Source: a virus (taxonomy: Duplodnaviria; Heunggongvirae; Uroviricota; Caudoviricetes). From it: a stretch of DNA of 64,000 nt. The first letter of the stretch is position 1. Every line of letters starts with the position of its first letter. The stretch is taken from IMG/VR virus record IMGVR_UViG_2675903433_000022; one strand, written 5' to 3'. Made by a program: the position numbers and the translations under genes. Shown here piece after piece: positions 1,661 to 55,517 of the stretch. The notes under the pieces were generated by a model. It was not told the origin of the DNA and made no database searches. It worked only from the letters and a program-made list of their open reading frames with translations.

Positions 1661-2178
1661 AATTTTCCAAATTTTCTGAGTTGGTGAATCGTATTTTGTC
1701 CAACAACCACAGCCATCGTCGCGATATGGATGTAACGATCGTTGTTCATTCGCCTGGTCGCATCGGTTCAACACCATCAGTTGAGGTTCAGTCAATTCAG
1801 GCGGGTTTTGATTGGGATGCCGGGAAAGTGATGATTTTTCCAGCACAGCCACTGACCACGCTAACACCGGAGCAGGTTGCTGATATTACTGAAAGTGTGC
1901 ACAAAGGCCAGTCATGGCACGCGTATCAGGAATACAAGAAGCATAAAGAGCAGTTGGAAAAATTGTCGATGGAGTTGGAAGCCGCTAAACAGAGGGAAAA
2001 AGATCTGTTTATGGAAAATGTTCGACTTAAGTCAGGTATAGCCGGTCTGATACACCTCGGTATTCGATATGCGGATGTTGAGGTCATGAAAATTGCTGGA
2101 GATGCCCAGCTTTCTACTCCATGCACTGACAGCATCATAAACAGCATTGCAACAGGCATTCGCATTACAGCAGAGTGA
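1657..2178 (+). CDS. Hypothetical protein
   Basis: ATG at 1657 overlaps previous stop (ATGA); RBS gagaaagaggga; the track ORF from 1528 is an in-frame upstream extension overlapping the previous gene. Confidence 0.55.
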
Positions 2179-2381
2179 GTGATATGGATAAAAATACCCC
2201 TGCTTACTGGAGTTTATCACTTGATACCGAATGCCCAAAATGCGGTCACAATTTCGATCTGCTTTGTGATGCTGATTTTTGGGAGTTTTCTGGAGCGAAA
2301 CAGGCGTGTGAAGAAATAGAAGGTTACGAAACATGCTGTCCAGAATGCAACCATGAATTTAAAACAGATTTTGTGTATTGA
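2175..2381 (+). CDS. Small zinc-ribbon protein
   Basis: Two CxxC pairs (CPKCGH...CCPECNH); GTG at 2175 overlaps upstream stop, alternative ATG at 2184. Confidence 0.5.
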   Translation: MSDMDKNTPAYWSLSLDTECPKCGHNFDLLCDADFWEFSGAKQACEEIEGYETCCPECNHEFKTDFVY

Positions 2382-2391
2382 AGCATAGCAA

Positions 2392-2913
2392 ATGACCACC
2401 TTTACCAAAGAACAACTAATTGATCATATTAATGATCGCAAAGATGTCCGTCAGAGAATGTTGGATACCGCAACGATTTCTTCTGGATTCCGAGAATATC
2501 TTGAAAGAGAGCTTGCCACCGATCAGATTGCCCTAGCGTCGCTGGAAGCTGAACCTGTTCTGTATCAGTCCTGCACTCGCCCCACTTGGAATAGCGGTGT
2601 TCCGTGGACGGAATGGAAAGAACGTAGTCGTGAGGGCTACGAAAACGATTTGCGCTTTACAGACACGCCTGACCATGCCGGTTGGATAAACAAATGTCGA
2701 AAACTATATACCACTCCGCCAGCGTCACTGCTACCTGACGGACTGGTTAAAGCCGTGCGCTTCTATGAACAGGTTAAGCGTGAAAATCCGCCAGTCGAAA
2801 CCGGAGCATGGAAAGACGCGGTTGACTGGGTGCTTAAAGAGGCTTTCCAGGCTGTATCAGTGTTGGAAAGCAGTAGAGAACACGAAGTTATTAGCCAGCA
2901 GGAGAAGGCATGA
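2392..2913 (+). CDS. Hypothetical protein, N-terminal paralogue of the 3108-3812 product
   Basis: 173 aa; starts MTTFTKEQLI, same as the ORF at 3108. Confidence 0.6.
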   Translation: MTTFTKEQLIDHINDRKDVRQRMLDTATISSGFREYLERELATDQIALASLEAEPVLYQSCTRPTWNSGVPWTEWKERSREGYENDLRFTDTPDHAGWINKCRKLYTTPPASLLPDGLVKAVRFYEQVKRENPPVETGAWKDAVDWVLKEAFQAVSVLESSREHEVISQQEKA

Positions 2914-3098
2914 GACAACTTTACACCATTGTTATCGCATTTGTTTTTGGTTTTGGCGGCATTTGCGTCGGTGAGAGTGCTGGCTATAACCGTGGATTAA
3001 GTGAAGGAGTTGCTATCAGCAAGGGGGATAAGTGGGATTGTGCTTACTCATACGTGACTGGATTCCTTATGTGTGATCGAACCCCAAAATATAAGTAG
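2910..3098 (+). CDS. Small membrane protein
   Basis: 62 aa, hydrophobic N-terminal segment IVIAFVFGFGGICVG; ATGA overlap with upstream stop. Confidence 0.45.
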   Translation: MRQLYTIVIAFVFGFGGICVGESAGYNRGLSEGVAISKGDKWDCAYSYVTGFLMCDRTPKYK

Positions 3099-3107
3099 AG
3101 GCTATCA

Positions 3108-3812
3108 ATGACCACCTTTACCAAAGAACAGTTAATCTCCCATGCACGCGAAAGCGTTAGTTATCTGGAAAACTTGAAAGGACGTGTTAGCAAAGAAGGT
3201 GCGGACTGCAAAGTTGTTATTGAGATGGTTGCACGAGATCTAAAACTGGCTCGAATTGCACTGACCTCACTTGAGACAAAACCAATAGGTGCATTCCACA
3301 TTGCAGAACAGCAAGTTGACGGTACAAGTGACTACATCAAGGATGGAGAGTGGCCTATTGATAATGGGACAATTGAAGTATACGCCGCCCCTCCAGTGCC
3401 AGTAGTACCGGAAGAAAAACCAATGCCTAATCCTCTTAGCATGTACGCGGTTGATGCTGTTGCCGCTATTGCAGAGGTGAGAGGCTGGAACGCCTGTCGT
3501 GCCGCTATGCTTCAGAGTCAAGATAATTGCATTAAGGATGGTTGGATAAGCTGTAGTGAGCGAATGCCTGTAATCGGCGAGCTAAATTGGAGAACTGGTT
3601 TTCCTTTGCTGATTACGTGTGAGATCGGCGTTATACCAGCTTATTACGGCTTTGTGAGCGTTAATGGGGATAAGCATTATGGTTTTATGGAAAGTTTTAA
3701 ATACGGAGACGATCGCGGCGGCCATCCTAAAACTAATGAATATGGTCTGATTAGCAATGTCACACACTGGATGCCGCTACCAGAACCTCCGCAGGAGTCG
3801 AAGAGTGAATAA
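3108..3812 (+). CDS. Hypothetical protein (paralogous N-terminus)
   Basis: 234 aa; MTTFTKEQLI start shared with the 2392 product. Confidence 0.6.
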   Translation: MTTFTKEQLISHARESVSYLENLKGRVSKEGADCKVVIEMVARDLKLARIALTSLETKPIGAFHIAEQQVDGTSDYIKDGEWPIDNGTIEVYAAPPVPVVPEEKPMPNPLSMYAVDAVAAIAEVRGWNACRAAMLQSQDNCIKDGWISCSERMPVIGELNWRTGFPLLITCEIGVIPAYYGFVSVNGDKHYGFMESFKYGDDRGGHPKTNEYGLISNVTHWMPLPEPPQESKSE

Positions 3813-4026
3813 AGCAGAGTTATTTCAGAAAATATCGGCTCTCGCGACTGAATGCCACGCTATAGCATCTGAGCTTGATGTTGGCGATGAACGAACCGAG
3901 ATGTTCGAAATATACAGTGTGCTGCGCAATCTCTGTCGGCGTGGCTACGCCACTCAAGTAGGGCGAATGACTAACCCACTACTCTCATCCTGTGATGAGG
4001 ATGACTCGGATGAGGATGACGAATGA
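3805..4026 (+). CDS. Small protein with acidic C-terminal tail
   Basis: GTG at 3805 preceded by AGGAG at 3793-3797; C-terminus DEDDSDEDDE; track ORF from 3757 overlaps upstream gene. Confidence 0.4.
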   Translation: MNKAELFQKISALATECHAIASELDVGDERTEMFEIYSVLRNLCRRGYATQVGRMTNPLLSSCDEDDSDEDDE

Positions 4027-4877
4027 TGCATAAATCAGTAGCCGGTGAGTTTCAGAAGGAAGTCGATAATACTACCGTTCTATTGGACGATATTTTAAGC
4101 ATTCTCGCGCTGCTTGAGGCTGGCGATTGGTCAGAACATTGCACTAAAACAGAGCTAGGCGGTCGGCTTGAAAGAGAGATTACACGACTTATTGGTGATG
4201 CGCAGGAAGCTACAGTCACTAGTTATGAGTTAATCGCTGAAGCCTGGCGTTTGATGGATGGACAAGATCCTAAAACCAGCGATTGGCATAGCAAGGCTTC
4301 GAAGTATTTAAATTCCAATAGGGTAGAAAAAGTTGATGATGTGAAACCGAAGCCAGTAGATCACGGTTTCCGCGATAACTGCGAATGCTCTAGTTGCCAG
4401 ACCACGGCCCGTATTTGTTCCGAATTGACAGATAAGTCCAGCCTAATCTACGAAGTTAATGTAGGCGGTAATACATGGGTCGAATGCACAAGAGCTGCAT
4501 ACGTAAGAGCAAAAGACAAGGGTGAATTAACCAGAGTTGTTACCCATCACCCAAATAATGAGCTTAAAGATCACCAGATTCGAGAACTAGTGAACGAGTT
4601 GCGGGATATTGCGGTTACGTATCACGGAACGCAGCAATTGCGGGAGAAAATTGCCAGAGCAGTGAACAACTCGCTCAAAGGTGGACAATCCCAACCGAAA
4701 CGTATACGAATTACACATATAGGTGAAAACGGAACAGAAATCCCCCAATTTTCTGTTGGGGACATCTTTGATGTACATGGAGAAGAGTTTGGTGAGCCTC
4801 ACATCACTATGCCTAGTGGCCATGTTTACTGGCTAAGAGCTATGGAGAAATATGGTGATAAATGGGAAGTGTTATGA
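4023..4877 (+). CDS. Hypothetical protein
   Basis: 284 aa; ATGA-coupled start. Confidence 0.6.
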   Translation: MMHKSVAGEFQKEVDNTTVLLDDILSILALLEAGDWSEHCTKTELGGRLEREITRLIGDAQEATVTSYELIAEAWRLMDGQDPKTSDWHSKASKYLNSNRVEKVDDVKPKPVDHGFRDNCECSSCQTTARICSELTDKSSLIYEVNVGGNTWVECTRAAYVRAKDKGELTRVVTHHPNNELKDHQIRELVNELRDIAVTYHGTQQLREKIARAVNNSLKGGQSQPKRIRITHIGENGTEIPQFSVGDIFDVHGEEFGEPHITMPSGHVYWLRAMEKYGDKWEVL

Positions 4878-5415
4878 GGGATGCGAAGTTATGACCAAAT
4901 TTGGAAAGCTGGAAGCTCATTTGCTGACTCGTAACTACCGCCATGATATACACCCATATAGACAGTGGATTGATGAAAGCGAAGGAGTTGTTACATTCCC
5001 TCTATACAGGTTTGATGGGATGTTGGCCGGGTATCAGACATACAGACCAGGCGCTCCTAAGCAGCATAGCAATCCGAAGATGGCCCGGTATTTCACACGA
5101 GCGCACGGCAGACAGCTACTATGGGGTACCTATCTTCCTTTAAAAGATGGACCGATATGGATAACTGAGTCGATTTTTAAAAGTGCAGCAGTGCACAACG
5201 CGGGCGGAAATTCGTGGGCGCTGTTAGGCTCGACTTTCTCAGCAGGATTACGTCGTCAACTGGCAATGCTGCCGTATGACTTTCGTGTAATAGGTGACAA
5301 TGATGCGGCTGGCGAATCACTTGTGAAGTCTTTCGGAAAAGGTTTTGTGGCACCGGATCTTGACGAGCTACAACCACATGAAGTGTCTAATTTGATTTTT
5401 AGCCATAGCCAATAA
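4852..5415 (+). CDS. Hypothetical protein
   Basis: Track ORF; alternative ATG at 4891 with GAGGGA RBS. Confidence 0.55.
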   Translation: MVINGKCYEGCEVMTKFGKLEAHLLTRNYRHDIHPYRQWIDESEGVVTFPLYRFDGMLAGYQTYRPGAPKQHSNPKMARYFTRAHGRQLLWGTYLPLKDGPIWITESIFKSAAVHNAGGNSWALLGSTFSAGLRRQLAMLPYDFRVIGDNDAAGESLVKSFGKGFVAPDLDELQPHEVSNLIFSHSQ

Positions 5416-5431
5416 GTATCACTTCTCCATT

Positions 5432-5452
5432 AAGGCCACAACTAGTGGCCTT
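5432..5452 (+). terminator. Stem-loop aaggccacaactagtggcctt at end of early operon
   Basis: Perfect inverted repeat immediately followed by the AAACAAtTTGTTT palindrome. Confidence 0.5.
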
Positions 5453-5465
5453 AAACAATTTGTTT
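5453..5465. promoter_or_regulatory. 13-bp palindrome AAACAAtTTGTTT (recurrent early-region motif)
   Basis: One of at least 11 intergenic copies read in the sequence. Confidence 0.45.
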
Positions 5466-5538
5466 TCTACGTTTTCTTATTTGAGAAAATCACGTTGTTG
5501 GCAGCTCATAGGCTTGTTGTTATACATAGCTGTATAGA

Positions 5539-5895
5539 TTATGAGCGTAAATTATTAGCGGATTTTAAGCCATATTCACCGTTATAGTAATTACTCGCGT
5601 TCCATTCATTGGGAAGCTCTTGTCTGTCCAATGTATAGTGGCGCACGATGTAACGACCTGCATCTTCTTCGAGGTACAGGCGGACATAGCCAATGTGAAT
5701 TACCGGTATGGGCGGCGTTCGTATTGCATAGATGTCGCGGAGATATACCGGTAGCTCGACAAATGCATCAGGTGCATCTGTGATGCTCGTTTTTTCACAG
5801 TATTCATATAACGCATCGTTGATATCGTTAAGGGATTCATGATCGTATATTTCCAGGTAATTACCCCGATCGCGATGGTACTCGATTTTAGCCAT
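5539..5895 (-). CDS. Hypothetical protein
   Basis: 118 aa, start adjacent to upstream stop (TGAATG on minus strand). Confidence 0.55.
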   Translation of the reverse strand: MAKIEYHRDRGNYLEIYDHESLNDINDALYEYCEKTSITDAPDAFVELPVYLRDIYAIRTPPIPVIHIGYVRLYLEEDAGRYIVRHYTLDRQELPNEWNASNYYNGEYGLKSANNLRS

Positions 5896-6480
5896 TCAAA
5901 ATCCCCTATTATCGTTTTGCATTTCTCTAATCCGGTCCAGAACAACTTCATGTTGGGCTTGGATAGCGGCTTTTTCGTTTTCAAGCCGGGCAATAGACTT
6001 CTCTAATTCTTTGCTGTACCAGGCAAGTTGGGTAAGGTTCATCCGGTTGTGATCGAGAGTTGGCGACACCTCGACGTGATCCCCTTCTTCCTGCCTTAAT
6101 GAGAAGAGATTCATCTCATCCCTTGAGGAAAATTCAGCAACAATTTCTTGTTGATGATCCGGTCGCTGCGGCATCCTTGCCAGTATAAATGGCGGTTCTA
6201 TTGAAAACATGAATGACGGTTTAGACCGTGTTTTGACCCATCTAGCTTGCTGTCTTTCGGCAAGTTCACAGGCTTCATCATAGTTATCTACAAAACCAAG
6301 CACGGATGGACGGTCCCACGCGCCACCATTCAGACAATAAACAACAATTTTCCCGTCAGGTTCTGTAACTCCATAGGGATGGTCCCACCAGGCGTCCAGC
6401 TGGGCTTTGGAGCGTTTCTCGTTAGGAGTGCAGTCAAAATTTTTGGGCAATGCAGGATCGAGAGGAATGCGGGCAGGCAT
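5896..6480 (-). CDS. Hypothetical protein
   Basis: 194 aa; RBS aaggaa 6 nt before ATG on minus strand. Confidence 0.55.
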   Translation of the reverse strand: MPARIPLDPALPKNFDCTPNEKRSKAQLDAWWDHPYGVTEPDGKIVVYCLNGGAWDRPSVLGFVDNYDEACELAERQQARWVKTRSKPSFMFSIEPPFILARMPQRPDHQQEIVAEFSSRDEMNLFSLRQEEGDHVEVSPTLDHNRMNLTQLAWYSKELEKSIARLENEKAAIQAQHEVVLDRIREMQNDNRGF

Positions 6481-6614
6481 GGCTAATTCCTTATTAATTG
6501 ATTAGTAACGAGGTTACGCTGATCCAGCGGTGATGAATAGTAGCAAAGCGCACAAAGTCATCAGAGGGGTTAAGACCCATAACGCGTTTGCACCAAAGGT
6601 GCATCTTTAATGTA

Positions 6615-6634
6615 TACTGTATGGATAAACAGTA
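6615..6634. promoter_or_regulatory. LexA (SOS) box tACTGTatggataaACAGta
   Basis: CTGT-N8-ACAG match to the SOS-box consensus TACTGTATATATATACAGTA, 19 nt upstream of the UmuD'-like start, overlapping a TATACT -10-like hexamer. Confidence 0.6.
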
Positions 6635-6652
6635 TTTTGAGGTGAAAACGCT

Positions 6653-7042
6653 ATGGGCTTCCCTTCTCCTGCGGCGGATTATGCTGAGAGCCGTATTTCT
6701 CTTGATCAGCAGATAATTAGACATCCTTCAGCGACCTACTTCATGAGGGCAGCTGATAGCCATCATCGTGAGGGAATATTACAGGGTGCATTGCTGGTGG
6801 TCGATTCCTCACTTACCCCGGTTGATGGTTCTCTGCTTGTATGCGCTCTGGATGGGGAATATCGCGTAAAAAGATACCGGAAGTATCCACGTCAGCATCT
6901 GGAGGATTTAAGAACCGGTAAGAAGGAAGCATTGCCAAAGGATGACGATGGATGCACGGGCAGCAATGCCGTGTTTGGTGTGATCACTCACATTATCAAC
7001 GACGCAAGAAGTGGCGAGTTTGATGATTGTCCCGTGATGTAG
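6653..7042 (+). CDS. UmuD'-like S24 peptidase-family protein, lacking the N-terminal arm
   Basis: Begins MGFPSPAADY, matching UmuD just after its self-cleavage site as remembered; conserved HPSATYF and VK motifs; RBS GAGGTGA; no umuC downstream. Confidence 0.7.
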   Translation: MGFPSPAADYAESRISLDQQIIRHPSATYFMRAADSHHREGILQGALLVVDSSLTPVDGSLLVCALDGEYRVKRYRKYPRQHLEDLRTGKKEALPKDDDGCTGSNAVFGVITHIINDARSGEFDDCPVM

Positions 7043-7054
7043 GAGAACTGATTA

Positions 7055-7078
7055 GGCGGTGCAATGCACCGCCTTTTT
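7055..7078. terminator. Bidirectional rho-independent terminator
   Basis: ggcggtgcaatgcaccgcc hairpin plus T-run, between convergent UmuD'-like gene and apbC. Confidence 0.6.
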
Positions 7079-7079
7079 A

Positions 7080-8180
7080 TCACACTGCGCGGAATGCGAT
7101 TTCGCCAGGTATTACTTCACCTTGCCAATACATTTGGGCAGCAACGCGATCTGCGAGGTCACGATAAATAGCCGTAAATTCGCTATCTGGACGACTAATA
7201 ACGGTTGGTGTTCCGTTATCCAGATCTTCACGAAGAGAGATATGAAGTGGCATTTGGCCTAACAACTGCGTGTTGTATTTCTCGGCCAGTTTCTGTGCGC
7301 CACCGGTGCCAAAAATTGGCTCGTGATGACCGCAGTTACTGCAAATATGCATACTCATGTTCTCGACAATACCGAGCACCGGAACCTCGACTTTCTCGAA
7401 CATCACAATGCCTTTTTTCGCATCGATCAACGCGATGTCCTGCGGCGTAGTTACCACAACCGCACCAGTTACAGGAATGTTCTGCGCCAGCGTCAATTGA
7501 ATATCACCAGTGCCCGGCGGCATATCGAGAACGAGATAGTCCAGATCAGGCCATAGAGTTTCCTGCAACATCTGCATTAACGCCTTGCTCGCCATCGGAC
7601 CACGCCACACCATCGCATTGTCGTCAGTTACCAGATAACCAATTGAATTGGTTGCCAGTCCATGAGACATAATCGGTGCCATGTGAGTACCGTCCGGTGA
7701 GGTTGGACGTTGGTTTTCCGCGCCAAGCATGGTTGGAATTGATGGCCCGTAGATATCGGCATCCAAAATACCAACTTTCGCACCTTCAGCAGCCAACGCC
7801 AGTGCCAGGTTTACCGCCGTGGAGGATTTACCAACGCCGCCCTTGCCTGAGCTGACGGCGATAATGTTCTTAACGCCATTAATGCCTGGTTGGTTTTTGA
7901 CGCGCTTAAGCGTGGCAATGTTGTACGACAGCTTCCAGTCGATAGCCTTTGCGCCAGTGATACGGAGCAGATCACCACTACATTGCTCTTTCAGGTCTTC
8001 AAAAGGCTTATTCCACACGAAAGGCATGATTAGTTCGACATGCAGTGTGTCATCCATCAACGCAACATGGTGTAACGCTTTAAGCGTAGTCAGGTTGTGT
8101 TTCAGGGTTGGGTGCTGAAAATTAGCCAGCGTACCGGCTACCATTGCTCTCAGGGCATCCGGCGATTTGGACTCGCTCAT
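7080..8180 (-). CDS. apbC: Fe-S cluster carrier ATPase ApbC/Mrp
   Basis: 366 aa; SSGKGGVGKSSTAVNLALALA Walker A, CSNCGHHEPIFG motif; ortholog-level similarity to enterobacterial Mrp; divergent from metG as in enterobacterial chromosomes. Confidence 0.9.
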   Translation of the reverse strand: MSESKSPDALRAMVAGTLANFQHPTLKHNLTTLKALHHVALMDDTLHVELIMPFVWNKPFEDLKEQCSGDLLRITGAKAIDWKLSYNIATLKRVKNQPGINGVKNIIAVSSGKGGVGKSSTAVNLALALAAEGAKVGILDADIYGPSIPTMLGAENQRPTSPDGTHMAPIMSHGLATNSIGYLVTDDNAMVWRGPMASKALMQMLQETLWPDLDYLVLDMPPGTGDIQLTLAQNIPVTGAVVVTTPQDIALIDAKKGIVMFEKVEVPVLGIVENMSMHICSNCGHHEPIFGTGGAQKLAEKYNTQLLGQMPLHISLREDLDNGTPTVISRPDSEFTAIYRDLADRVAAQMYWQGEVIPGEIAFRAV

Positions 8181-8337
8181 CCCGTCTCCTTTATTTTAAT
8201 TTGCGCAATTGTCGCCTTGTAGTGTACTCCAGCTACGGCATTTAATCATTTATGAGAAATGCTGTTATCACATGGCAGACATAAGGCCATTTTGTTACTA
8301 TCAAGCCCCTTTTCACTACAAAGAAGTAATGCCTACT

Positions 8338-10371
8338 ATGACCCAAGTCGCGAAGAAAATTCTGGTGACGTGCGCGCTGCCGTACGCTAACGGCTCAATC
8401 CACCTCGGCCATATGCTGGAGCACATCCAGGCTGATGTCTGGGTTCGTTACCAGCGAATGCGCGGCCACGAGGTTAATTTCATCTGTGCCGACGATGCCC
8501 ACGGTACGCCGATCATGCTGAAAGCACAGCAGCTTGGTATCACACCGGAGCAGATGATTGGCGAAATGAGTCAGGAACACCAGACTGATTTCGCAGGCTT
8601 TAACATCAGCTATGACAACTATCACTCGACGCACAGCGAAGAGAACCGTCAGTTGTCTGAGCTTATCTATACTCGCCTGAAAGAGAACGGTTTTATTAAA
8701 AATCGTACCATCTCTCAGCTGTACGACCCGGAAAAAGGCATGTTCCTGCCGGACCGTTTTGTAAAAGGCACCTGCCCTAAATGTAAAGCGCCAGATCAAT
8801 ACGGCGATAACTGTGAAGTCTGCGGCGCGACTTACAGCCCGACTGAACTGATCGAGCCGAAATCGGTAGTTTCTGGTGCTACGCCGGTAATGCGTGATTC
8901 CGAACACTTCTTCTTTGATCTGCCTTCTTTCAGCGAAATGTTGCAGGCATGGACCCGCAGCGGTGCGTTGCAGGAGCAGGTGGCAAACAAAATGCAGGAG
9001 TGGTTTGAATCTGGCCTGCAACAGTGGGATATCTCCCGTGACGCACCTTACTTCGGTTTTGAAATTCCGAACGCGCCGGGCAAATATTTCTACGTCTGGC
9101 TGGACGCGCCGATTGGCTACATGGGTTCCTTCAAGAATCTGTGCGACAAGCGCGGTGATACCACCAGCTTCGATGAATACTGGAAGAAAGACTCCACCGC
9201 CGAGCTGTACCACTTCATCGGTAAAGATATTGTTTACTTCCACAGCCTGTTCTGGCCTGCCATGCTGGAAGGCAGCAACTTCCGCAAGCCGACCAACCTG
9301 TTTGTTCATGGCTATGTGACGGTGAACGGCGCAAAGATGTCCAAGTCTCGCGGCACCTTTATTAAAGCCAGCACCTGGCTGAATCATTTTGACGCTGACA
9401 GCCTGCGTTACTACTACACTGCGAAACTCTCTTCGCGCATTGATGATATCGATCTCAACCTGGAGGATTTCGTTCAGCGCGTGAATGCCGATATCGTGAA
9501 CAAAGTGGTTAACCTGGCCTCCCGTAATGCAGGCTTTATCAACAAGCGTTTTGACGGCGTGCTGGCAAGCGAACTGGCTGACCCGCAACTGTACAAAACC
9601 TTTACTGATGCCGCTGAAGTGATTGGTGAAGCATGGGAAAGCCGCGAATTTGGTAAAGCGATTCGTGAAATCATGGCGCTGGCTGATCTGGCTAACCGCT
9701 ATGTCGATGAACAGGCTCCGTGGGTGGTGGCGAAGCAGGAAGGACGCGATGCCGATCTGCAGGCGATTTGCTCTATGGGCATTAACCTGTTCCGCGTGCT
9801 GATGACGTACCTGAAACCGGTACTGCCGAAACTGACTGAACGTGCAGAAGCATTCCTGAATACAGAACTGACCTGGGATGGTATCCAGCAACCGCTGCTG
9901 GGCCATAAAGTGAATCCGTTCAAGGCACTGTATAACCGTATCGATATGAAACAGGTGGAAGCACTGGTGGAAGCATCCAAAGAAGAAGTGAAAGCCACAG
10001 CTGCACCGGTAACTGGCCCACTGGCTGACGACCCGATTCAGGAAACCATCACCTTTGACGACTTCGCCAAAGTTGACCTGCGTGTGGCGCTGATTGAAAA
10101 CGCGGAGTTTGTCGAAGGTTCTGACAAACTGCTTCGCCTGACGCTGGATCTCGGTGGTGAAAAGCGTAATGTCTTCTCAGGCATCCGTTCCGCTTATCCA
10201 GATCCACAGGCACTGATTGGTCGTCACACCATTATGGTGGCTAACCTGGCTCCGCGTAAAATGCGCTTCGGTATCTCTGAAGGCATGGTGATGGCTGCTG
10301 GCCCCGGCGGGAAAGATATCTTCCTGTTAAGCCCGGATGCTGGTGCTAAACCTGGCCACCAGGTTAAGTAA
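8338..10371 (+). CDS. metG: Methionyl-tRNA synthetase
   Basis: 677 aa from [29 protein letters not shown] (HIGH motif), KMSKS present, C-terminal tRNA-binding domain; track ORF 8209 is an upstream in-frame extension. Confidence 0.95.
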
Positions 10372-10393
10372 TTAAACAACCTCTCTTCGCAAT

Positions 10394-10418
10394 GCCCGGC
10401 AACACGCCGGGCATTTTT
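10394..10418 (+). terminator. Rho-independent terminator after metG
   Basis: gcccggcaacacgccgggc hairpin followed by TTTTT. Confidence 0.7.
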
Positions 10419-10456
10419 CATATAGACACAATCCCTTCTGATTTACACAGTACCTA

Positions 10457-10469
10457 AAACAATTTGTTT
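10457..10469. promoter_or_regulatory. AAACAAtTTGTTT palindrome
   Basis: Perfect copy ~40 bp after the metG terminator; second copy at 10508-10520. Confidence 0.45.
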
Positions 10470-10533
10470 TCTGCCTTTTGTTGATGGAGATAATAAACCA
10501 CATAAGAAAACAACTTGTTTTGGAGTGGTTGAA

Positions 10534-10833
10534 ATGTTGAACATTACCCAAGCCTACCAGGTGGCATTGATCAGCTCATCTCATACATCAGAGGAAGATG
10601 CTCGCCGATTCATGATCGCAAGCAATGAGCTGGATTGGGTTTCACAAATTGAGTACGGTTGCATTGTCCACGCCGGGTTACAGGACGATGACTGGAAAGA
10701 TGAGTTGCGTCGATATGGTATATCCGAGGGCGCGATTGCGAACATTCAGAAAGTACTTGATGTAGGCTTTGACTCTGTACATTTTGATTGTGGCGCACCG
10801 GTCGTTGAAGGGCTTGAGTGCTGGCAATGGTAA
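10534..10833 (+). CDS. Hypothetical protein
   Basis: ATG with GGAG 8 nt upstream; 99 aa. Confidence 0.55.
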   Translation: MLNITQAYQVALISSSHTSEEDARRFMIASNELDWVSQIEYGCIVHAGLQDDDWKDELRRYGISEGAIANIQKVLDVGFDSVHFDCGAPVVEGLECWQW

Positions 10834-11055: not shown

Positions 11056-11159
11056 CCAAACCGTTGATAATGGCGGTCACAATTTGATTCTTTTCTATAA
11101 GAATCCGTTGATCGCCACTACTCCCCTTCCATACCTGCAATCATATCCTTAAATATCAA

Positions 11160-11950
11160 TAGGTTATAGTTGTTTGCACAAACAAGAAAACAACTGAATA
11201 ACAGATCAACGAAACGTCAACGCTTTCTCCCGATTTGGTCTAAAAAATTGACGTTTTCACACATCACTTCTTATACCCGTAATTCTACGCAGCAGATAGC
11301 GCCACAGCGTTCAATTTTCACCACAGACGACTCAACACACTACCAACAAAAACACACGCTCAAAATCGCTCCCGTTGCGTTACACAACCATATAAACAAC
11401 TTATTTTCAGGTATAACAAAACAACTAAATAACACATACGCCATTACCAAAAACAACCAACCTCTTTATGGCAGGCTACCGAAAAGACCCACCTCTTCTT
11501 CCCAGGCTACCGGACAGCCAACCTAACTTTCACAGGCAATCCGAAAACATTCATACGCGCGATACCCACGACACGCCATTACCCAAACATCGAAGAAACA
11601 CCAGAATCACTGAAACCCCAACGAAGTCTGTAACCGCAAGGCTTCTCTCAATCCCAAAAGACACGAAACATAACAATCACGGGAAACGCCATTACCCAAT
11701 ACACGAATAACTACAAAAGCCCTTCACACACTCCAGACAAACAACTCAAACACAATAACGAAAGGAATAGCCCACCTGCCATTACTCCATATACGGAGAA
11801 GAACAATAACCATAACGACGAGAACACCCCATAGAAGAACCACCGCAAAACGAACGAAACCACATACACCGACAGAGAAAACAACACACCCAATCCACCA
11901 ACAGAAATAGTCGCCCTATAGAACGTTCTGGTAGGAGTGAGCATTAACGC
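11160..11950 (+). other. ORF-poor, strongly C+A-rich (G-depleted on plus strand) tract; possible non-coding RNA or origin-proximal region
   Basis: No ORF with an RBS; plus-strand composition skew visible by eye; terminator hairpin at 12035-12058. Confidence 0.3.
11457..11557. repeat. Three tandem ~30-bp direct repeats (CAGGCTACCGAAAAGACCCACCT-type), family 1
   Basis: Units read at 11472, 11503, 11533; related set at 14618-14705. Confidence 0.5.
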
Positions 11951-12034
11951 CTATAGAGAGGTTGAGACAGATAAAACACGAAGAAAACACAACATGTATA
12001 GCGAAGAAGCCAGGTATGTATAAGTGGGGAGGGA

Positions 12035-15385: not shown

Positions 15386-15870
15386 TCGCCTTTGTGTAGA
15401 AAAAAACATCGGGAAGCTGGTGGAATCCAACCAGCGGTTGTCGGACAGGTGAGCGGGGAAAATTATGATGACTTTCGTCGCCTGAGACATCCAGATTTCT
15501 TTCGTAGCGTAATCACATACGTGATTAAGTGGTGTGATTATGTGAAAAATCACGCGCACATAATACGCGAGCGGATACGGAACAAAACAAAATGCCGATC
15601 CGCGCCGACAATTAAACGCGGACACATAGCAAGAATAAAAGCCAATGATTAACCATACACCATAACGCAATATAACGCGATTTAAGCGCGTTAATGCGCT
15701 AAGTAATGGGTATGTACTGGTAAGGATATAAAAGCGCGTCTATGGCGTTATTTTGGCGCTTATTTTTATGTTGTTGGCTTGAGTCAAAGACAATAAAAAA
15801 AGCGCCATCATTGGCGCGTTATGGTGGAAGTATTGGAAACGAAAAAAGCGCCCATAGTGGGCGCTCGATT

Positions 15871-16101
15871 TTATTTGTGTAAACTGATTTTAAATCCCAT
15901 TTCTACAAACGCTTTTAACATTAAAAATATATCAGCGTCGTTCACGTCTGCTTTTTTTCGCTCCTGGTCGCTCAATAAGTCAATTTTGCGCGTCGTTTCA
16001 TCTATAAGCTCGACTGCGCGCCCAGCGTAACCAGCGATCCCAGCGATGCGATTAACATAATATTCATTATGGACGTTAACGCCAGCGATAAGAACAAACA
16101 T
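15871..16101 (-). CDS. Hypothetical small protein in AT-rich island
   Basis: 76 aa; RBS ttaaggagcttaatc before ATG on minus strand. Confidence 0.5.
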   Translation of the reverse strand: MFVLIAGVNVHNEYYVNRIAGIAGYAGRAVELIDETTRKIDLLSDQERKKADVNDADIFLMLKAFVEMGFKISLHK

Positions 16102-16120
16102 GATTAAGCTCCTTAAAAAA

Positions 16121-16324
16121 TTAAATAGAATTTTGAAGTTTTCCGATTAATGCGCTTAAACGTAAGTATTCACGTTTACGCTTGCAATCTCGCTTGTTGT
16201 TAAGCAAATCAGAAAACGTAAAATTTAATTGGTCGCGTTGCGCGATCAAATCATCGATTAATTCCAGTTTATAAGCGCGATACTTTGCGCGATATTCCGC
16301 GCGGATCTTGTCATAGCTGACCAT
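16121..16324 (-). CDS. Hypothetical small basic protein in AT-rich island
   Basis: 67 aa from MVSYDK; RBS aaaggag 8 nt upstream; track ORF extends to 16369. Confidence 0.45.
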   Translation of the reverse strand: MVSYDKIRAEYRAKYRAYKLELIDDLIAQRDQLNFTFSDLLNNKRDCKRKREYLRLSALIGKLQNSI

Positions 16325-16372
16325 CTTTAAAGCTCCTTTAAAGCGCCCACTATGGGCGCTTGATTCCATTAA

Positions 16373-17023
16373 TTACGCTTTGAAAGCATCAGCTAAATAA
16401 TTGTAGAAATCATTTTTAATGAAGCGATATTGCTGAGTACCAGCTTTCGCACTCCCAGCTCCTTTGACTTTTTCAACAAGTCCAAGACGTTCGCAAAGAT
16501 TGATCAACTGGTTGGCTTGAGTATAGCCAGCGTCCAATTTAATTTCACACGCTTTTTTAGCTTCATTCATTAAATCGAAAACAGCGCCATTGGTGAACGT
16601 GTCGATCTCGTCGTTAATCATATCGATTAAAGCGAATACACGAGATCCAGACATATCAGCGATGGAATAAACGCATTTACCAGATTTAATTGATTTAACC
16701 AGATAAACCAGTTTTTCCAGAGAATAACTATTAGTCATTGCATCACGGAAAAATACTTCTGGCGCTTGTTTGCTTGCTTTAATCGCATAGTAGAAAACAG
16801 AGCATAATTTTTCGTCTTCAACAGCGTTTACAACGTTGTTGATGAAGTAAGCAAGTTTAGTGGTCGCAGCTTGCATATTTGCTTTGTCTGCTTTAGTGTG
16901 CGTACCATTTTTATAATGTTCGTTATATGTTTGAGTTGCCAGATCTGCTTTTTCGCGCAGTTCATCGGATACAATGGAAGCAGCTTCAATGATGGATTTT
17001 TTAGAAATGATAATGTTAGCCAT
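16373..17023 (-). CDS. Hypothetical protein in AT-rich island
   Basis: 216 aa; RBS aaggaaaaattatc; locally low GC. Confidence 0.6.
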   Translation of the reverse strand: MANIIISKKSIIEAASIVSDELREKADLATQTYNEHYKNGTHTKADKANMQAATTKLAYFINNVVNAVEDEKLCSVFYYAIKASKQAPEVFFRDAMTNSYSLEKLVYLVKSIKSGKCVYSIADMSGSRVFALIDMINDEIDTFTNGAVFDLMNEAKKACEIKLDAGYTQANQLINLCERLGLVEKVKGAGSAKAGTQQYRFIKNDFYNYLADAFKA

Positions 17024-17306
17024 GATAATTTTTCCTTATGTAAATTTAAAATTTATTGTCGTTAGCGTCTTCGCTTTCGACGAGTTCAATTATCGATACA
17101 CGAAAAAAGATTGCAAGTGTTTTTTTAAAATTTTTTGCAGGGATGAAAGTCCTAGAAATAAAAGCGAGATCGTCGAAGGTGTTCCCTAAATAAATAATCG
17201 ATTCCGACTTTCGACCTTATATATATTTAGATTATTTGATTTATAGATATAAAGAAGTGATGTGAAAAATAATAACCGGACTTAGCCGGTTATTAACCTT
17301 ATAGAT

Positions 17307-17615
17307 TTATTGAACAGACTCTACAGCCTTACGATTGGTGTCAAATAGCGCATCAACGAACTGTGCCGATGACTCGCTAGATTCGCAATCCAACATTGCC
17401 CGTTCTTCATTTGCCACTTTCTTACACAGTTCCACATTCTCACCTATCGCTTTTCCTGCTTTTACGGCTGCCGAAAATTGATACATGCAAACTGATACAT
17501 TCTGAGACGTTGAGCACACGTCATTCATCAGCGACTGAATGACAGGCTTATAGTCCATTGCATTTGCCGCAACTGAGCAAAGTAAAAATAATGGTGGTAA
17601 CAATATCGATTTCAT
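17307..17615 (-). CDS. Small secreted (signal-peptide) protein
   Basis: N-terminus MKSILLPPLFLLCSVAANA resembles a Sec signal peptide; several Cys in the mature part. Confidence 0.55.
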   Translation of the reverse strand: MKSILLPPLFLLCSVAANAMDYKPVIQSLMNDVCSTSQNVSVCMYQFSAAVKAGKAIGENVELCKKVANEERAMLDCESSESSAQFVDALFDTNRKAVESVQ

Positions 17616-17618
17616 AAC

Positions 17619-18143
17619 TCAAAAAGGCAAAATTCGCTCAACCCAATCGAACAAAACAACTATTTTTCTACCGTTCTCGACACGTAGTGTAACCTGACAA
17701 GCATCTGCGCCTGCTGACACTCCCTCAATTTCACGGCCATCCGCCATGTACACCCTTATAGATTTGTTTGCTTTGTAGGCTTGGTTGCAAATTGCAAAAA
17801 AATCGCGGCGTGATGGCCGATTATCGACATAATCAGGGTGAACTGTTAGTCGACCTTTGAAATCGTGAGCGATACTGTCAACCACACCTGATTCAATTGT
17901 ACTAATGCGTTCAAGTGGGAGCCTTATACGATTTTCTTTATCAAAAGGGGCTGGGCAAAGGTCAACTTTGTTACGAGATGGCATGAGGCCATAAACGTAC
18001 ATGCAAAACGCCTGGCCATCTTCGAGAGTGACCCTTACAGGAATTTGTTCTCTGCGCCAGAACATCAGTAGTTTTTCAACGTTAGTGTAATCTCGCGGCC
18101 AGAGTTCAGCTTGGATACCGTAGGTAATATCTTTGGTTGTCAT
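17619..18143 (-). CDS. Hypothetical protein
   Basis: Start MTTKD directly after the upstream stop; track ORF to 18221 overlaps the upstream gene. Confidence 0.5.
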   Translation of the reverse strand: MTTKDITYGIQAELWPRDYTNVEKLLMFWRREQIPVRVTLEDGQAFCMYVYGLMPSRNKVDLCPAPFDKENRIRLPLERISTIESGVVDSIAHDFKGRLTVHPDYVDNRPSRRDFFAICNQAYKANKSIRVYMADGREIEGVSAGADACQVTLRVENGRKIVVLFDWVERILPF

Positions 18144-18147
18144 GTCA

Positions 18148-18612
18148 TCACAGAGTTGTTGGCAGAATGTCGATGTCACCAGAATTGCTGGTGAACACCC
18201 TGAACGCTTTTGTGTCTCCATTCTTCAGAGTCGTTTCTCGCTCTTGACGAGCGGGGTTTAGAGCACATAAACCTGCACCTTCAAGAGATGCACCCACAAT
18301 TAATTCTCCGGCATTTAAATGGAAAGTCGCTTTTTCGCCTGTAGCCAGTTTTGCGACAGTTTCGCCGTTGATGAAAATGGAAGCATCACATCCAGCTCCT
18401 ACAAAACCTGTGTCTCTCATTACCACCAACGTAGCTGGCGCTGCGCTTTGATACTTGAACACTTTGGCCTGCGGTGCTGGTTTGGCGTCATGGATTGATA
18501 TTGGGCGTGATTGGCACGCGGTAAGCATCAACACTGGTAACGTTAGTAGAGGGAGAAGCGAGTATTTCATGATAGTTTTAGAACAGAAAGTGAACAGTAT
18601 GGGAGACTTCAT
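18148..18612 (-). CDS. Putative lipoprotein
   Basis: Signal peptide with lipobox LTAC (…LPLLTLPVLMLTAC); RBS agggagacaaag before the first ATG; a shorter start at MKYSLL is possible. Confidence 0.6.
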   Translation of the reverse strand: MKSPILFTFCSKTIMKYSLLPLLTLPVLMLTACQSRPISIHDAKPAPQAKVFKYQSAAPATLVVMRDTGFVGAGCDASIFINGETVAKLATGEKATFHLNAGELIVGASLEGAGLCALNPARQERETTLKNGDTKAFRVFTSNSGDIDILPTTL

Positions 18613-20543: not shown

Positions 20544-21242
20544 GTGGATTGTAGCAATAAAATGGATGTAAAAATCACGATTTTGCAGGTTGATGTTGCC
20601 AACCTTCGCCCGAATACCTGGAACACCAATTCGGTTGGTGCGCAGAATTTTGAAAAACTGAAAGGTTCTATCGAAAAATTGGGCTTTTTTAAGCCAATTT
20701 TGGCTCGTGAACTTGAAGATGGATTTTTTGAAATCCTCGGCGGCGAACATCGCTGGCGTGCTGCTATTGAGCAAGGAATTTCAACGGTTCCGGTGCTTTC
20801 TGTGGGCAAAATTAGCGATGTCGTAGCTAAACAGATGTCACTGGTGGACAACGAGCGATACGGTGAAGACGACCAAATCGCATTGCAACGCTTCATTGAA
20901 GAAATTCAGTCAGAACTTGACTATCAACTGTCTGAAATCGCCCCGTATGACGACGAAATCTCGATGGTTTTAGCAAAAGAGGCGGCAATCGACCTTGAAG
21001 CACTGGAGGCGTTGTCTCGTGGTAGTGATGAGCCTGTCGATACCGACAAACGAGAGAAAACCGAACGTGTGGGGGCGGAACATCAGACCATGCGCTTCAA
21101 AGTAACTTTCGATGCGTCAGATCGTGTTGCAGAAACCATAAAAAACATCATCAAAGAGCAGGCTATTAACACCGGTAATGAAATGGAGAACGCTGGTGAG
21201 GCTCTGGTGTGGCTGGTCGACTACTACAAGGAGCGTATGTAA
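20544..21242 (+). CDS. ParB/Srx-fold (ParB N-terminal domain) protein 1
   Basis: VANLRPNTWNTN and GGEHRWRAA motifs typical of the ParB nuclease-like domain; start ambiguous (GTG 20544 or ATG 20562). Confidence 0.7.
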   Translation: MDCSNKMDVKITILQVDVANLRPNTWNTNSVGAQNFEKLKGSIEKLGFFKPILARELEDGFFEILGGEHRWRAAIEQGISTVPVLSVGKISDVVAKQMSLVDNERYGEDDQIALQRFIEEIQSELDYQLSEIAPYDDEISMVLAKEAAIDLEALEALSRGSDEPVDTDKREKTERVGAEHQTMRFKVTFDASDRVAETIKNIIKEQAINTGNEMENAGEALVWLVDYYKERM

Positions 21243-54848: not shown

Positions 54849-55517
54849 ATGACCAAGATCTTTGTGGTTGGCGGCACAAAGGGCGGGCCTGGCAAATCCA
54901 CTGTTGCCCAGCAAATTGCCGTTTGCCTGAAAGTCAAAAAGAAGAAGAAGGTTTATATCACTGATATAGATATTCAGCGCACGACAACAAGCTGGTGTGA
55001 AGACCGTCGACAGAACGAAGACCTTGAGCTGATTCCTTTTGCCTACGTTCAGGATGACATCATTAAGCACCTAAAATCGCTTCAGGGTAGAGCTGAGTTT
55101 GTAGTGGTAGATGCTGGTGGCTTTGACTCCGAAATTCAGCGACAAGCGATGCTGATGGCCGACGTTATCATTATCCCGCTGCGTCCTAAGCGTCGTGATT
55201 TGAAATCTCTGCGTGACATCGATCCTATTATCGACAATGTTCGTAATGTAAACGATAAAGTGAAGGTCCGCGCGGTCATGAACCAGTGCCCGGCTTTGCC
55301 ATCACAAGTGTCTCGCATTCTGGCGGCTAAAGAGATTGTCGAGACGTTTGGCATCGAGTCTGCGCCAGTCAATCTATATAACCGCAACGTCTACGATGAT
55401 GCGGAAGAGTCTGGTCGTTCTATCTTCGAAATGACCGGTAGCGAGCGCGACAAAAAGGCTGAAGCCGAGTTTGAAGAATTTGTAGATTATCTGTTGAGTC
55501 TGGAGGAAGAAGAATAA
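54849..55517 (+). CDS. ParA/ParF-family partition ATPase
   Basis: Deviant Walker A KIFVVGGTKGGPGKST; 222 aa (small type Ib ParA size). Confidence 0.85.
   Translation: MTKIFVVGGTKGGPGKSTVAQQIAVCLKVKKKKKVYITDIDIQRTTTSWCEDRRQNEDLELIPFAYVQDDIIKHLKSLQGRAEFVVVDAGGFDSEIQRQAMLMADVIIIPLRPKRRDLKSLRDIDPIIDNVRNVNDKVKVRAVMNQCPALPSQVSRILAAKEIVETFGIESAPVNLYNRNVYDDAEESGRSIFEMTGSERDKKAEAEFEEFVDYLLSLEEEE

Follow-up and report, generated by a model that had tools for sequence, protein, structure and literature searches.

An apbC-metG module under purifying selection on an SSU5-supergroup phage-plasmid of Escherichia coli and Shigella

The DNA described here is a 64,000-nucleotide stretch of a tailed-phage record from IMG/VR (IMGVR_UViG_2675903433_000022; "the window" denotes this whole stretch), in which apbC (also called mrp) and metG, two genes of bacterial housekeeping type, lie divergently with phage genes around them. 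A sequence-only reading of the window had singled out this pair as host genes embedded in a phage genome, and we found both genes intact in that setting. We assign the window to the SSU5 supergroup of phage-plasmids, alongside pECOH89, pSLy3 and pWPMR2 in the E. coli/Shigella branch, and its apbC-metG block comprises the following parts.

7080-8180, minus strand: apbC (mrp), an Fe-S cluster carrier P-loop ATPase of 366 aa, intact (open reading frame and Pfam)
8181-8337, no strand assigned: apbC-metG intergenic region of 157 bp, a predicted divergent promoter region
8338-10371, plus strand: metG, a methionyl-tRNA synthetase of 677 aa, intact (open reading frame and Pfam)

The ApbC protein matches the ParA/NUBPL family of Pfam (E=2e-102), with PF10609 spanning residues 103-346 and profile positions 2-245 of 246, and its translation contains the Walker A motif GKGGVGKS and a CSNC (CXXC) motif, which place it among the ApbC/Mrp/NBP35 Fe-S carriers. 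Its identity to the K-12 protein is 93.8%, with only 83.8% at the nucleotide level. For metG, the mechanically called open reading frame begins at a TTG at 8209, and we take 8338 as the gene start. The encoded methionyl-tRNA synthetase (MetRS) matches tRNA-synt_1g (E=4.6e-166) over residues 8-397, corresponding to profile positions 1-390 of 391, followed by Anticodon_3 at 416-540 and tRNA_bind at 581-674, and it contains the HIGH (here HLGH) and KMSKS signatures and the zinc knuckle CPKC…CEVC. By these predicted domains MetG is a full-length class I enzyme of the long, dimeric gammaproteobacterial type with a C-terminal tRNA-binding domain. It is 98.8% identical to K-12 in amino acids and 94.4% in nucleotides, and the block overall is 89% identical to K-12 in nucleotides. 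Within the intergenic region, the ~70 nt nearest metG are conserved everywhere, including a TGnTACTAT extended -10-like motif, while the distal part has a "long" Citrobacter-like architecture; an alignment revealed a segment of ~25 nt common to the element and Citrobacter that is absent in Escherichia and Salmonella.

Homology to the E. coli chromosome is confined to 7084-10372, from the stop codon of apbC to the stop codon of metG. In the junction alignments we saw no mobile-element scars, and the homology simply ends at the stop codons. The features adjoining the block are these.

6615-6634: LexA box of humD (CTGT-N8-ACAG)
6653-7042, plus strand: humD, a UmuD-like S24 peptidase and the left neighbour of the block (Pfam Peptidase_S24; P1/P7/SJ46 matches)
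7054-7074, plus strand: hairpin terminator between humD and apbC, with its T-run on the plus strand
10391-10415, plus strand: intrinsic terminator 3' of metG, a 10-bp stem with 7 GC pairs and then a T-run
10534-10833, plus strand: DUF5983 gene, the right neighbour, at which the backbone resumes (Pfam E=7.5e-13)

The sequence-only reading had set the start at 6600 and given the block flanking terminators. On the metG side, the terminator at 10391-10415 follows metG, is kept in 6 other phage-plasmids and is absent from K-12; on this comparison, the terminator and all DNA to its right are element DNA. On the left, a start at 6600 takes in humD and its LexA box, which belong to a P1-like module, and the 7054-7074 hairpin, with its T-run on the plus strand, terminates humD. 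This hairpin is missing from plasmid pZ1323HEC0016-2, where der replaces humD and the sequence shared with the window begins at ~7070, so the hairpin is part of the humD module and not of the captured block. That reading was also mistaken in giving all flanking genes one orientation, as 5539-6480 is on the minus strand.

The right junction is identical in 6 of 6 aligned relatives, and the left junction is identical wherever humD adjoins. DUF5983 is the right neighbour in most relatives, including a divergent lineage found in draft E. coli assemblies (L093-L096, for example DAFUVE010000025.1, 64,060 bp), which joins metG to DUF5983 in the same way; in pZ1323HEC0016-2 a DUF1380 gene takes that position. 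Left of apbC the relatives vary. In pZ1323HEC0016-2 (NZ_CP148383.1, 1279-2751), der, which encodes the ribosome-biogenesis GTPase EngA and is another essential host translation-related gene carried by a phage-plasmid, lies directly beside apbC in the place of humD. In p2014C-4015-1 the 3' end of humD adjoins apbC without an annotated humD coding sequence, and beyond it, on the left, come genes for a GNAT acetyltransferase and a polysaccharide deacetylase. Because the left neighbour differs between relatives, we regard the region left of apbC as a variable hot spot and apbC-metG as the conserved unit.

Chromosomal homology that stops exactly at both stop codons has a splice-like look, and it could be read as the trace of an accident: a recent chance pick-up, an assembly chimera, or a native locus caught between two prophage remnants, with the genes as neutral passengers. 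The distribution of the block argues against this. A native copy, which the sequence-only reading had suggested looking for, exists in all 5,426 of 5,426 complete E. coli genomes, ~90-91% identical to the window and lying elsewhere, between yehE and yehF. The K-12 locus (b2113-b2114) has the same genes in the same divergent layout with the metG-proximal leader conserved, whereas its flanks, yehE/yehF, are unrelated to the humD/DUF5983 surroundings in the window. Alleles of the window type (95-98% identity) occur at 224 places in the same complete genomes, all of them on plasmids, which amounts to a frequency of ~4% (224 plasmid places/5,426 genomes). In strain PRO_A-1482-6W-A_ESBL a plasmid copy and a chromosomal copy are both present.

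The same reading had raised a chimeric assembly, and independent assemblies speak against one: the same junctions recur in more than 200 independently assembled circular plasmids of ~105-115 kb and in four phage records. Together, the distribution and the identity of the junctions in practice rule out a chimera or a chromosome with two prophage remnants. In PLSDB the block is found in 208 plasmids (191 from Escherichia and 6 from Shigella, plus E. albertii), of which 203 are non-mobilizable. The closest match there is the S. sonnei plasmid NZ_CP099775 (110,949 bp) at 98.0%, and the window's allele is distinct, with no match reaching 99%. A comparison with relatives, likewise proposed beforehand, placed the carriers in one E. 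coli/Shigella/E. albertii branch (pECOH89, pAVS0968-B, Cyrano, PhiR41_1, CMS-2020a); a nucleotide search and tblastn did not detect the block in SSU5, SJ46, P1 or Klebsiella phage-plasmids.

One plasmid, ESBL242 (NZ_KP792123.1), retains only the last ~200 bp of metG, which may mean that loss of the block is tolerated. We considered it as a natural deletion and found it ambiguous, with an assembly possibly broken at metG: the host background of this assembly was MG1655, whose own metG could have caused a break, and ESBL242 is therefore weak evidence for block loss. Overall, we find a neutral or artefactual origin of the block hardly credible, and the substitution patterns given below bear on it as well.

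The backbone is that of a phage and probably also of a plasmid. PHROGs matches within the window include the large terminase, portal, tape measure (a full-length match to phrog_1292), J-type tail tip and tail fibre, together with a DnaB helicase, primase, ligase and DEAD-box helicase, and the siphovirus structural and packaging module is related to that of SSU5-like elements. Two genes are of the partition type, and no rep gene was identified within the 64-kb window.

20544-21242: ParB_N protein
54849-55517: ParA-like ATPase

Over its first 20 kb, the window is covered to 78%, 78% and 67% by CMS-2020a, PhiR41_1 and Cyrano, respectively, at 95-97% nucleotide identity; PhiR41_1 was deposited as a phage with MG1655 as its host. 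SSU5 itself matches at 79.7% nucleotide identity over 15751-18484, and SSU5 and the Klebsiella phage-plasmids match only patchily, at ~80%. Among complete E. coli genomes, pAVS0968-B and other non-mobilizable circles of ~105-115 kb match best.

Two repeated signals tie the two sides of the block together. An exact 13-bp palindrome, AAACAANTTGTTT, occurs seven times against 0.01 expected: at 5453 and 10457, as the sequence-only reading had noted, and also at 10508, 13073, 23878, 54801 and 57731. The hairpin AAGGCCA…TGGCCTT occurs three times against 0 expected, at 190, 5432 and 14573, the last one nucleotide from the 14574 noted earlier. Since both signals are found on both sides of the block, they mark a single element. 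With the junctions common to more than 200 circular plasmids, and with structural and ParA/ParB-like genes alongside, the earlier claim of one element and not two prophage ends is well founded.

We compared nonsynonymous (dN) and synonymous (dS) divergence using Nei-Gojobori estimates and found strong purifying selection on both genes. Between the window and K-12, metG has a dN of 0.006 and a dS of 0.27 (dN/dS 0.022), and apbC a dN of 0.031 and a dS of 1.18 (dN/dS 0.026). Among six element alleles, dS is 0.08-0.21 for metG with dN/dS of at most 0.017, and 0.11-0.31 for apbC with dN/dS of at most 0.015. Element alleles that have thus diverged to a dS of up to 0.2-0.3 while dN/dS stayed at or below 0.017 in both genes are incompatible with neutral decay. 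These low ratios indicate that both genes are kept functional on the element, and that apbC is no decaying passenger. The 98.8% identity of MetG to the K-12 protein, together with the dN/dS of 0.02, suggests that it aminoacylates tRNA in vivo.

At the protein level, the two genes differ in character. ApbC has fixed element-specific changes (W41L, S58K, A59P, A69G, H303N, L350M) and a different N-terminus. For MetRS, a comparison of 6 element and 5 Escherichia sequences revealed no element-specific residues, and the eight differences between the window and K-12 are mostly K-12-derived states. An altered or dominant MetRS enzyme was rejected, as none of the 11 sequences has element-specific substitutions, and this result favours a mechanism of dosage over one of a changed enzyme. 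On sequence evidence we favour a dosage or regulatory effect, possibly exerted through the distinct upstream promoter region.

The same residues bear on a further idea, that the plasmid MetRS is a resistance- or immunity-type second synthetase protecting its carrier from a MetRS-targeting inhibitor or toxin. A second aminoacyl-tRNA synthetase on a mobile element is a known resistance route, the plasmid gene ileS2/mupA giving protection against mupirocin, and extra dose alone can titrate an inhibitor. However, every residue of the element MetRS is also found in the chromosomal Escherichia MetRS sequences compared, which makes an insensitive variant unlikely, and excerpts from the literature on the element implicate no such inhibitor. 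We consider this idea improbable.

The explanation we prefer, at a probability of roughly 85%, is that the window is an SSU5-branch phage-plasmid on which apbC-metG is a long-established accessory module, maintained by selection and conferring a dosage-type benefit on the host. The 3.3-kb block would have come from an enterobacterial chromosome in one piece bounded by the two stop codons, retaining its own divergent promoter region while the element supplied the terminators; its genes are probably expressed from that retained promoter region. A carrier cell would then gain a further MetRS, wild-type and fully functional, and a further ApbC that is more diverged, with a gene dose that should track plasmid copy number and rise on lytic replication. 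Expression of metG from the phage-plasmid could yield a tolerant or persister-like subpopulation that survives antibiotics, to the benefit of the host and hence of the element, the phenotype being taken from the literature on Shigella sonnei.

That literature concerns pWPMR2, a phage-plasmid of S. sonnei whose metG reportedly favours survival of antimicrobials (Tam et al. 2024, medRxiv 10.1101/2024.10.27.24316207, as cited in PMC12452169), the gene being summarised there as present in "multi- and highly variable copies". pWPMR2 is assigned to the SSU5 supergroup, whose elements are found in 18% of S. sonnei, and pWPMR2-like elements occur in E. coli CC131, CC23 and CC73 (bioRxiv 10.1101/2025.09.12.675607). 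Like the window, the pWPMR2 type is an Escherichia/Shigella phage-plasmid of this supergroup with an additional metG and a host that retains its chromosomal metG; pWPMR2 belongs to clade K and pSLy3 to clade J. In excerpts from PMC12452169 and bioRxiv 10.1101/2025.09.12.675607, apbC is not mentioned for it.

Four points weigh against a host-side dosage benefit. The pWPMR2-type metG is summarised in PMC12452169 as multiple and highly variable copies, whereas the window has a single wild-type-like copy. The survival phenotype and its mechanism come from a two-sentence summary in that article. A consensus scan for sigma-70 promoters found no strong site within the intergenic region. Finally, ApbC has no established role.

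An explanation centred on the phage would have MetRS, together with ApbC, aid the lytic cycle by raising the charging of Met-tRNA and fMet-tRNA at a time when translation must be initiated for dozens of genome copies, with any antibiotic tolerance as a by-product. The aminoacyl-tRNA synthetase genes of jumbo phages and giant viruses are presumed to act in this way. The element already duplicates many replication and nucleotide functions of the host (DnaB, primase and ligase in the window), pECOH89 is reported to carry dnaE, dnaG, rnhA, dam, dfrA and nrdAB (PMC3999498), and a relative carries der at the same spot; a MetRS kept host-identical is also what efficient charging of host tRNA would lead one to expect. 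Against this, the block has a host-type promoter region and is not part of an element operon behind palindrome sites, and the published phenotype is on the host side. The two explanations are compatible with each other. We judge it possible but unlikely that a lytic function is what the genes are kept for, and retain host benefit through dosage as the preferred account.

The wider phage record bears on how exceptional the cargo is. By tblastn, MetRS matches occur in 28 of 50,697 phage records, many of them very short; the matches that we inspected and those in very short records resemble host DNA. Convincing cases number four among E. coli phage-plasmids, to which a jumbo Microcystis phage and phages of ~635 kb are added, and in the latter two groups MetRS is genuinely phage-borne, which speaks for the lytic-cycle explanation. 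Two further candidates for metG capture were rejected: Acinetobacter phage MD-2021a (CAKLQF020000011.1) is a chromosomal contig in which dcd, pfs, mrp and emrB are neighbours, and the record of Pseudomonas phage Y5 (OQ572407.1) is marked UNVERIFIED and is unannotated. Both records are probably host contamination in the phage database. The jumbo phages and giant viruses, for example Microcystis phage MaAM05, also encode a class I MetRS, but the jumbo-phage enzymes are only distantly homologous (24-29% identity) and belong to lytic phages with very large genomes, whereas that of the window is nearly host-identical and resides in a temperate plasmid-prophage.

Phage-borne MetRS is thus rare among phages, while within this branch it is common, annotated and published. 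The sequence-only reading was right to call the cargo unusual as far as its frequency among phage records goes; as a discovery it is not, the genes having been described before. The pECOH89, AnCo1/2 and pSLy3-like plasmids and the phages Cyrano, PhiR41_1 and CMS-2020a have the same backbone, block position and right junction, and in relatives of the pECOH89/Cyrano type the block is annotated as metG/apbC, "MetRS", "Mrp" or, mistakenly, "MinD". These relatives differ from the window in allele and in left neighbour (the humD module in the window, der in pZ1323HEC0016-2), and metG goes unmentioned in the first genome announcements of pECOH89 and AnCo1/2. The metG/apbC cargo is, then, already known: over 200 records of plasmids and phages carry its annotation, and publications connect it with antibiotic survival.

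Its significance is that a temperate, plasmid-living phage with a working essential translation enzyme can alter host physiology without a classical resistance gene. The summary in PMC12452169 ties the element's metG to antibiotic survival in epidemic S. sonnei, which makes the module worth recognising in surveillance. What remains of interest beyond this is a conserved apbC that has no explanation, an ancient and diverging apbC next to a host-like metG, and apparent traffic of metG alleles with the chromosome.

The histories of the two genes are discordant. Calibrated from K-12, the dS of apbC is 0.62 to E. albertii, 1.38 to Salmonella and 1.2 to Citrobacter, and that of metG is 0.34, 0.91 and 0.74. 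With a dS of 1.18, the element apbC thus lies at the distance of another genus, and with 0.27 the element metG lies at that of another Escherichia species. By segment BLAST and sliding windows, identity at both ends of apbC is 76-82% to everything sampled; it is ~91% to E. coli in the middle of the gene, and for metG 91-96% to Escherichia. Two mixed 150-nt windows, from 8130 and 8193, take in most of the intergenic region; their identity is 44-55% to E. coli and 64-67% to Citrobacter werkmanii, and the best BLAST matches of this region outside the element are Citrobacter at 77-79%.

Neighbour-joining bootstraps, from seven element alleles only, separate the genes in the same manner. For the apbC ends, the element clade sits on a long branch outside an Escherichia clade supported at 100%, whereas for metG the element alleles are nested inside Escherichia and an Escherichia-only clade receives 0%. 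The metG of pECOH89 adjoins that of K-12, with 100-nt bins holding 0-1 differences.

The divergent lineage in draft assemblies is the rarer one, found in none of the 5,426 complete E. coli genomes, and it extends this picture. Its apbC is 76% identical to that of the window in nucleotides and 81% in amino acids (dS ~1.8, dN/dS 0.06), and its ApbC has element-specific residues too, NKP at 57-59 and M350. Its metG is 96.9% identical to K-12 with a dS of 0.13, and its intergenic region is unique. Left of apbC, these assemblies carry more host-like cargo (ydeI-like, hokD, a yhjA-like peroxidase, cytochrome b562 and hsdS), the ydeI/hokD part matching the E. coli chromosome at ~87% identity; on the other side, beyond DUF5983, lie an IS605-type tnpB and an Rpn-family gene.

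No chromosomal donor emerged from an ApbC peptide-pattern scan of 100,044 species genomes: among the matches listed none exceeded 95% amino acid identity, and the best of those listed (Salmonella, Citrobacter and Escherichia) were equidistant. In an ApbC homologue search, clustering at 90% merged the enterobacterial alleles and left no donor signal; it was there that the divergent lineage surfaced.

Sequence comparison suggests an old capture from a lineage that branched off at about the root of Escherichia or before it, after which metG recombined with alleles of its hosts. Three caveats apply: the longest K-12-identical run in the window's metG is 126 nt, so that evidence for recent conversion is weak; the native ratio of apbC to metG dS is 1.5-1.8 compared with 4.3 here, so that native rates explain part of the gap; and seven element alleles underlie the analysis. 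A bolder version is that apbC and the promoter region are ancient, in at least two deeply diverged lineages (81% amino acid identity, with saturated synonymous sites) outside the sampled Escherichia, and that metG has been repeatedly overwritten by or exchanged with host chromosomal metG. We advance this tentatively, at somewhat less than even odds. If it is true, the phage-plasmid would be a long-term shuttle of essential translation-gene alleles between Escherichia and Shigella lineages. Tolerance-by-lag mutations hit metG repeatedly in evolution experiments with E. coli, and as metG is a tolerance locus the alleles so transferred could include ones for tolerance. The purifying selection that acts independently on apbC would in that case point to an unrecognised role of its own, as an Fe-S carrier, in the biology of the element.

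Apart from the block, the palindrome itself merits description. Sites and arrangements in the window are as follows.

211, 5453, 10457, 10508, 11394, 12588, 13073, 13975, 14739, 23853, 23878, 54801 and 57731: sites matching AAACAANTTGTTT with at most one mismatch
5432-5465, plus strand: composite of the hairpin AAGGCCA…TGGCCTT and then the palindrome, left of the block; also at 190-223
10457-10469 and 10508-10520, plus strand: two AAACAANTTGTTT copies flanking the presumed promoter of the DUF5983 gene

Allowing one mismatch, there are 13 copies against 0.46 expected, spanning 211-57731. Most copies precede the start of a plus-strand gene by 13-75 nt (DUF5983, parA-like, dnaB and packaging genes), and two lie directly 3' of terminator hairpins. 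The pair at 10457-10520 is kept in all compared phage-plasmids, even with a different downstream gene. From its placement, AAACAANTTGTTT looks like the operator of an element-encoded regulator; we found no published description of the palindrome.

Two further regions stand out. The module at 1987-7032 contains Ea22/EaA-like genes, a gene for a DNA-binding protein and the LexA-regulated humD, and it is ~92% identical to phages P1/P7, which indicates exchange between two phage-plasmid families that co-occur in E. coli. At 11070-11960 lies a tract of ~0.9 kb that is poor in open reading frames and strongly A+C-rich (GC skew -0.35, AT skew +0.33). An Rfam scan of the whole window, this tract included, matched no family. 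The tract contains three copies of GCCATTACYC, and related plasmids and phages have a gap without annotation in its place; a non-coding RNA is one possibility, a region for replication or packaging another.

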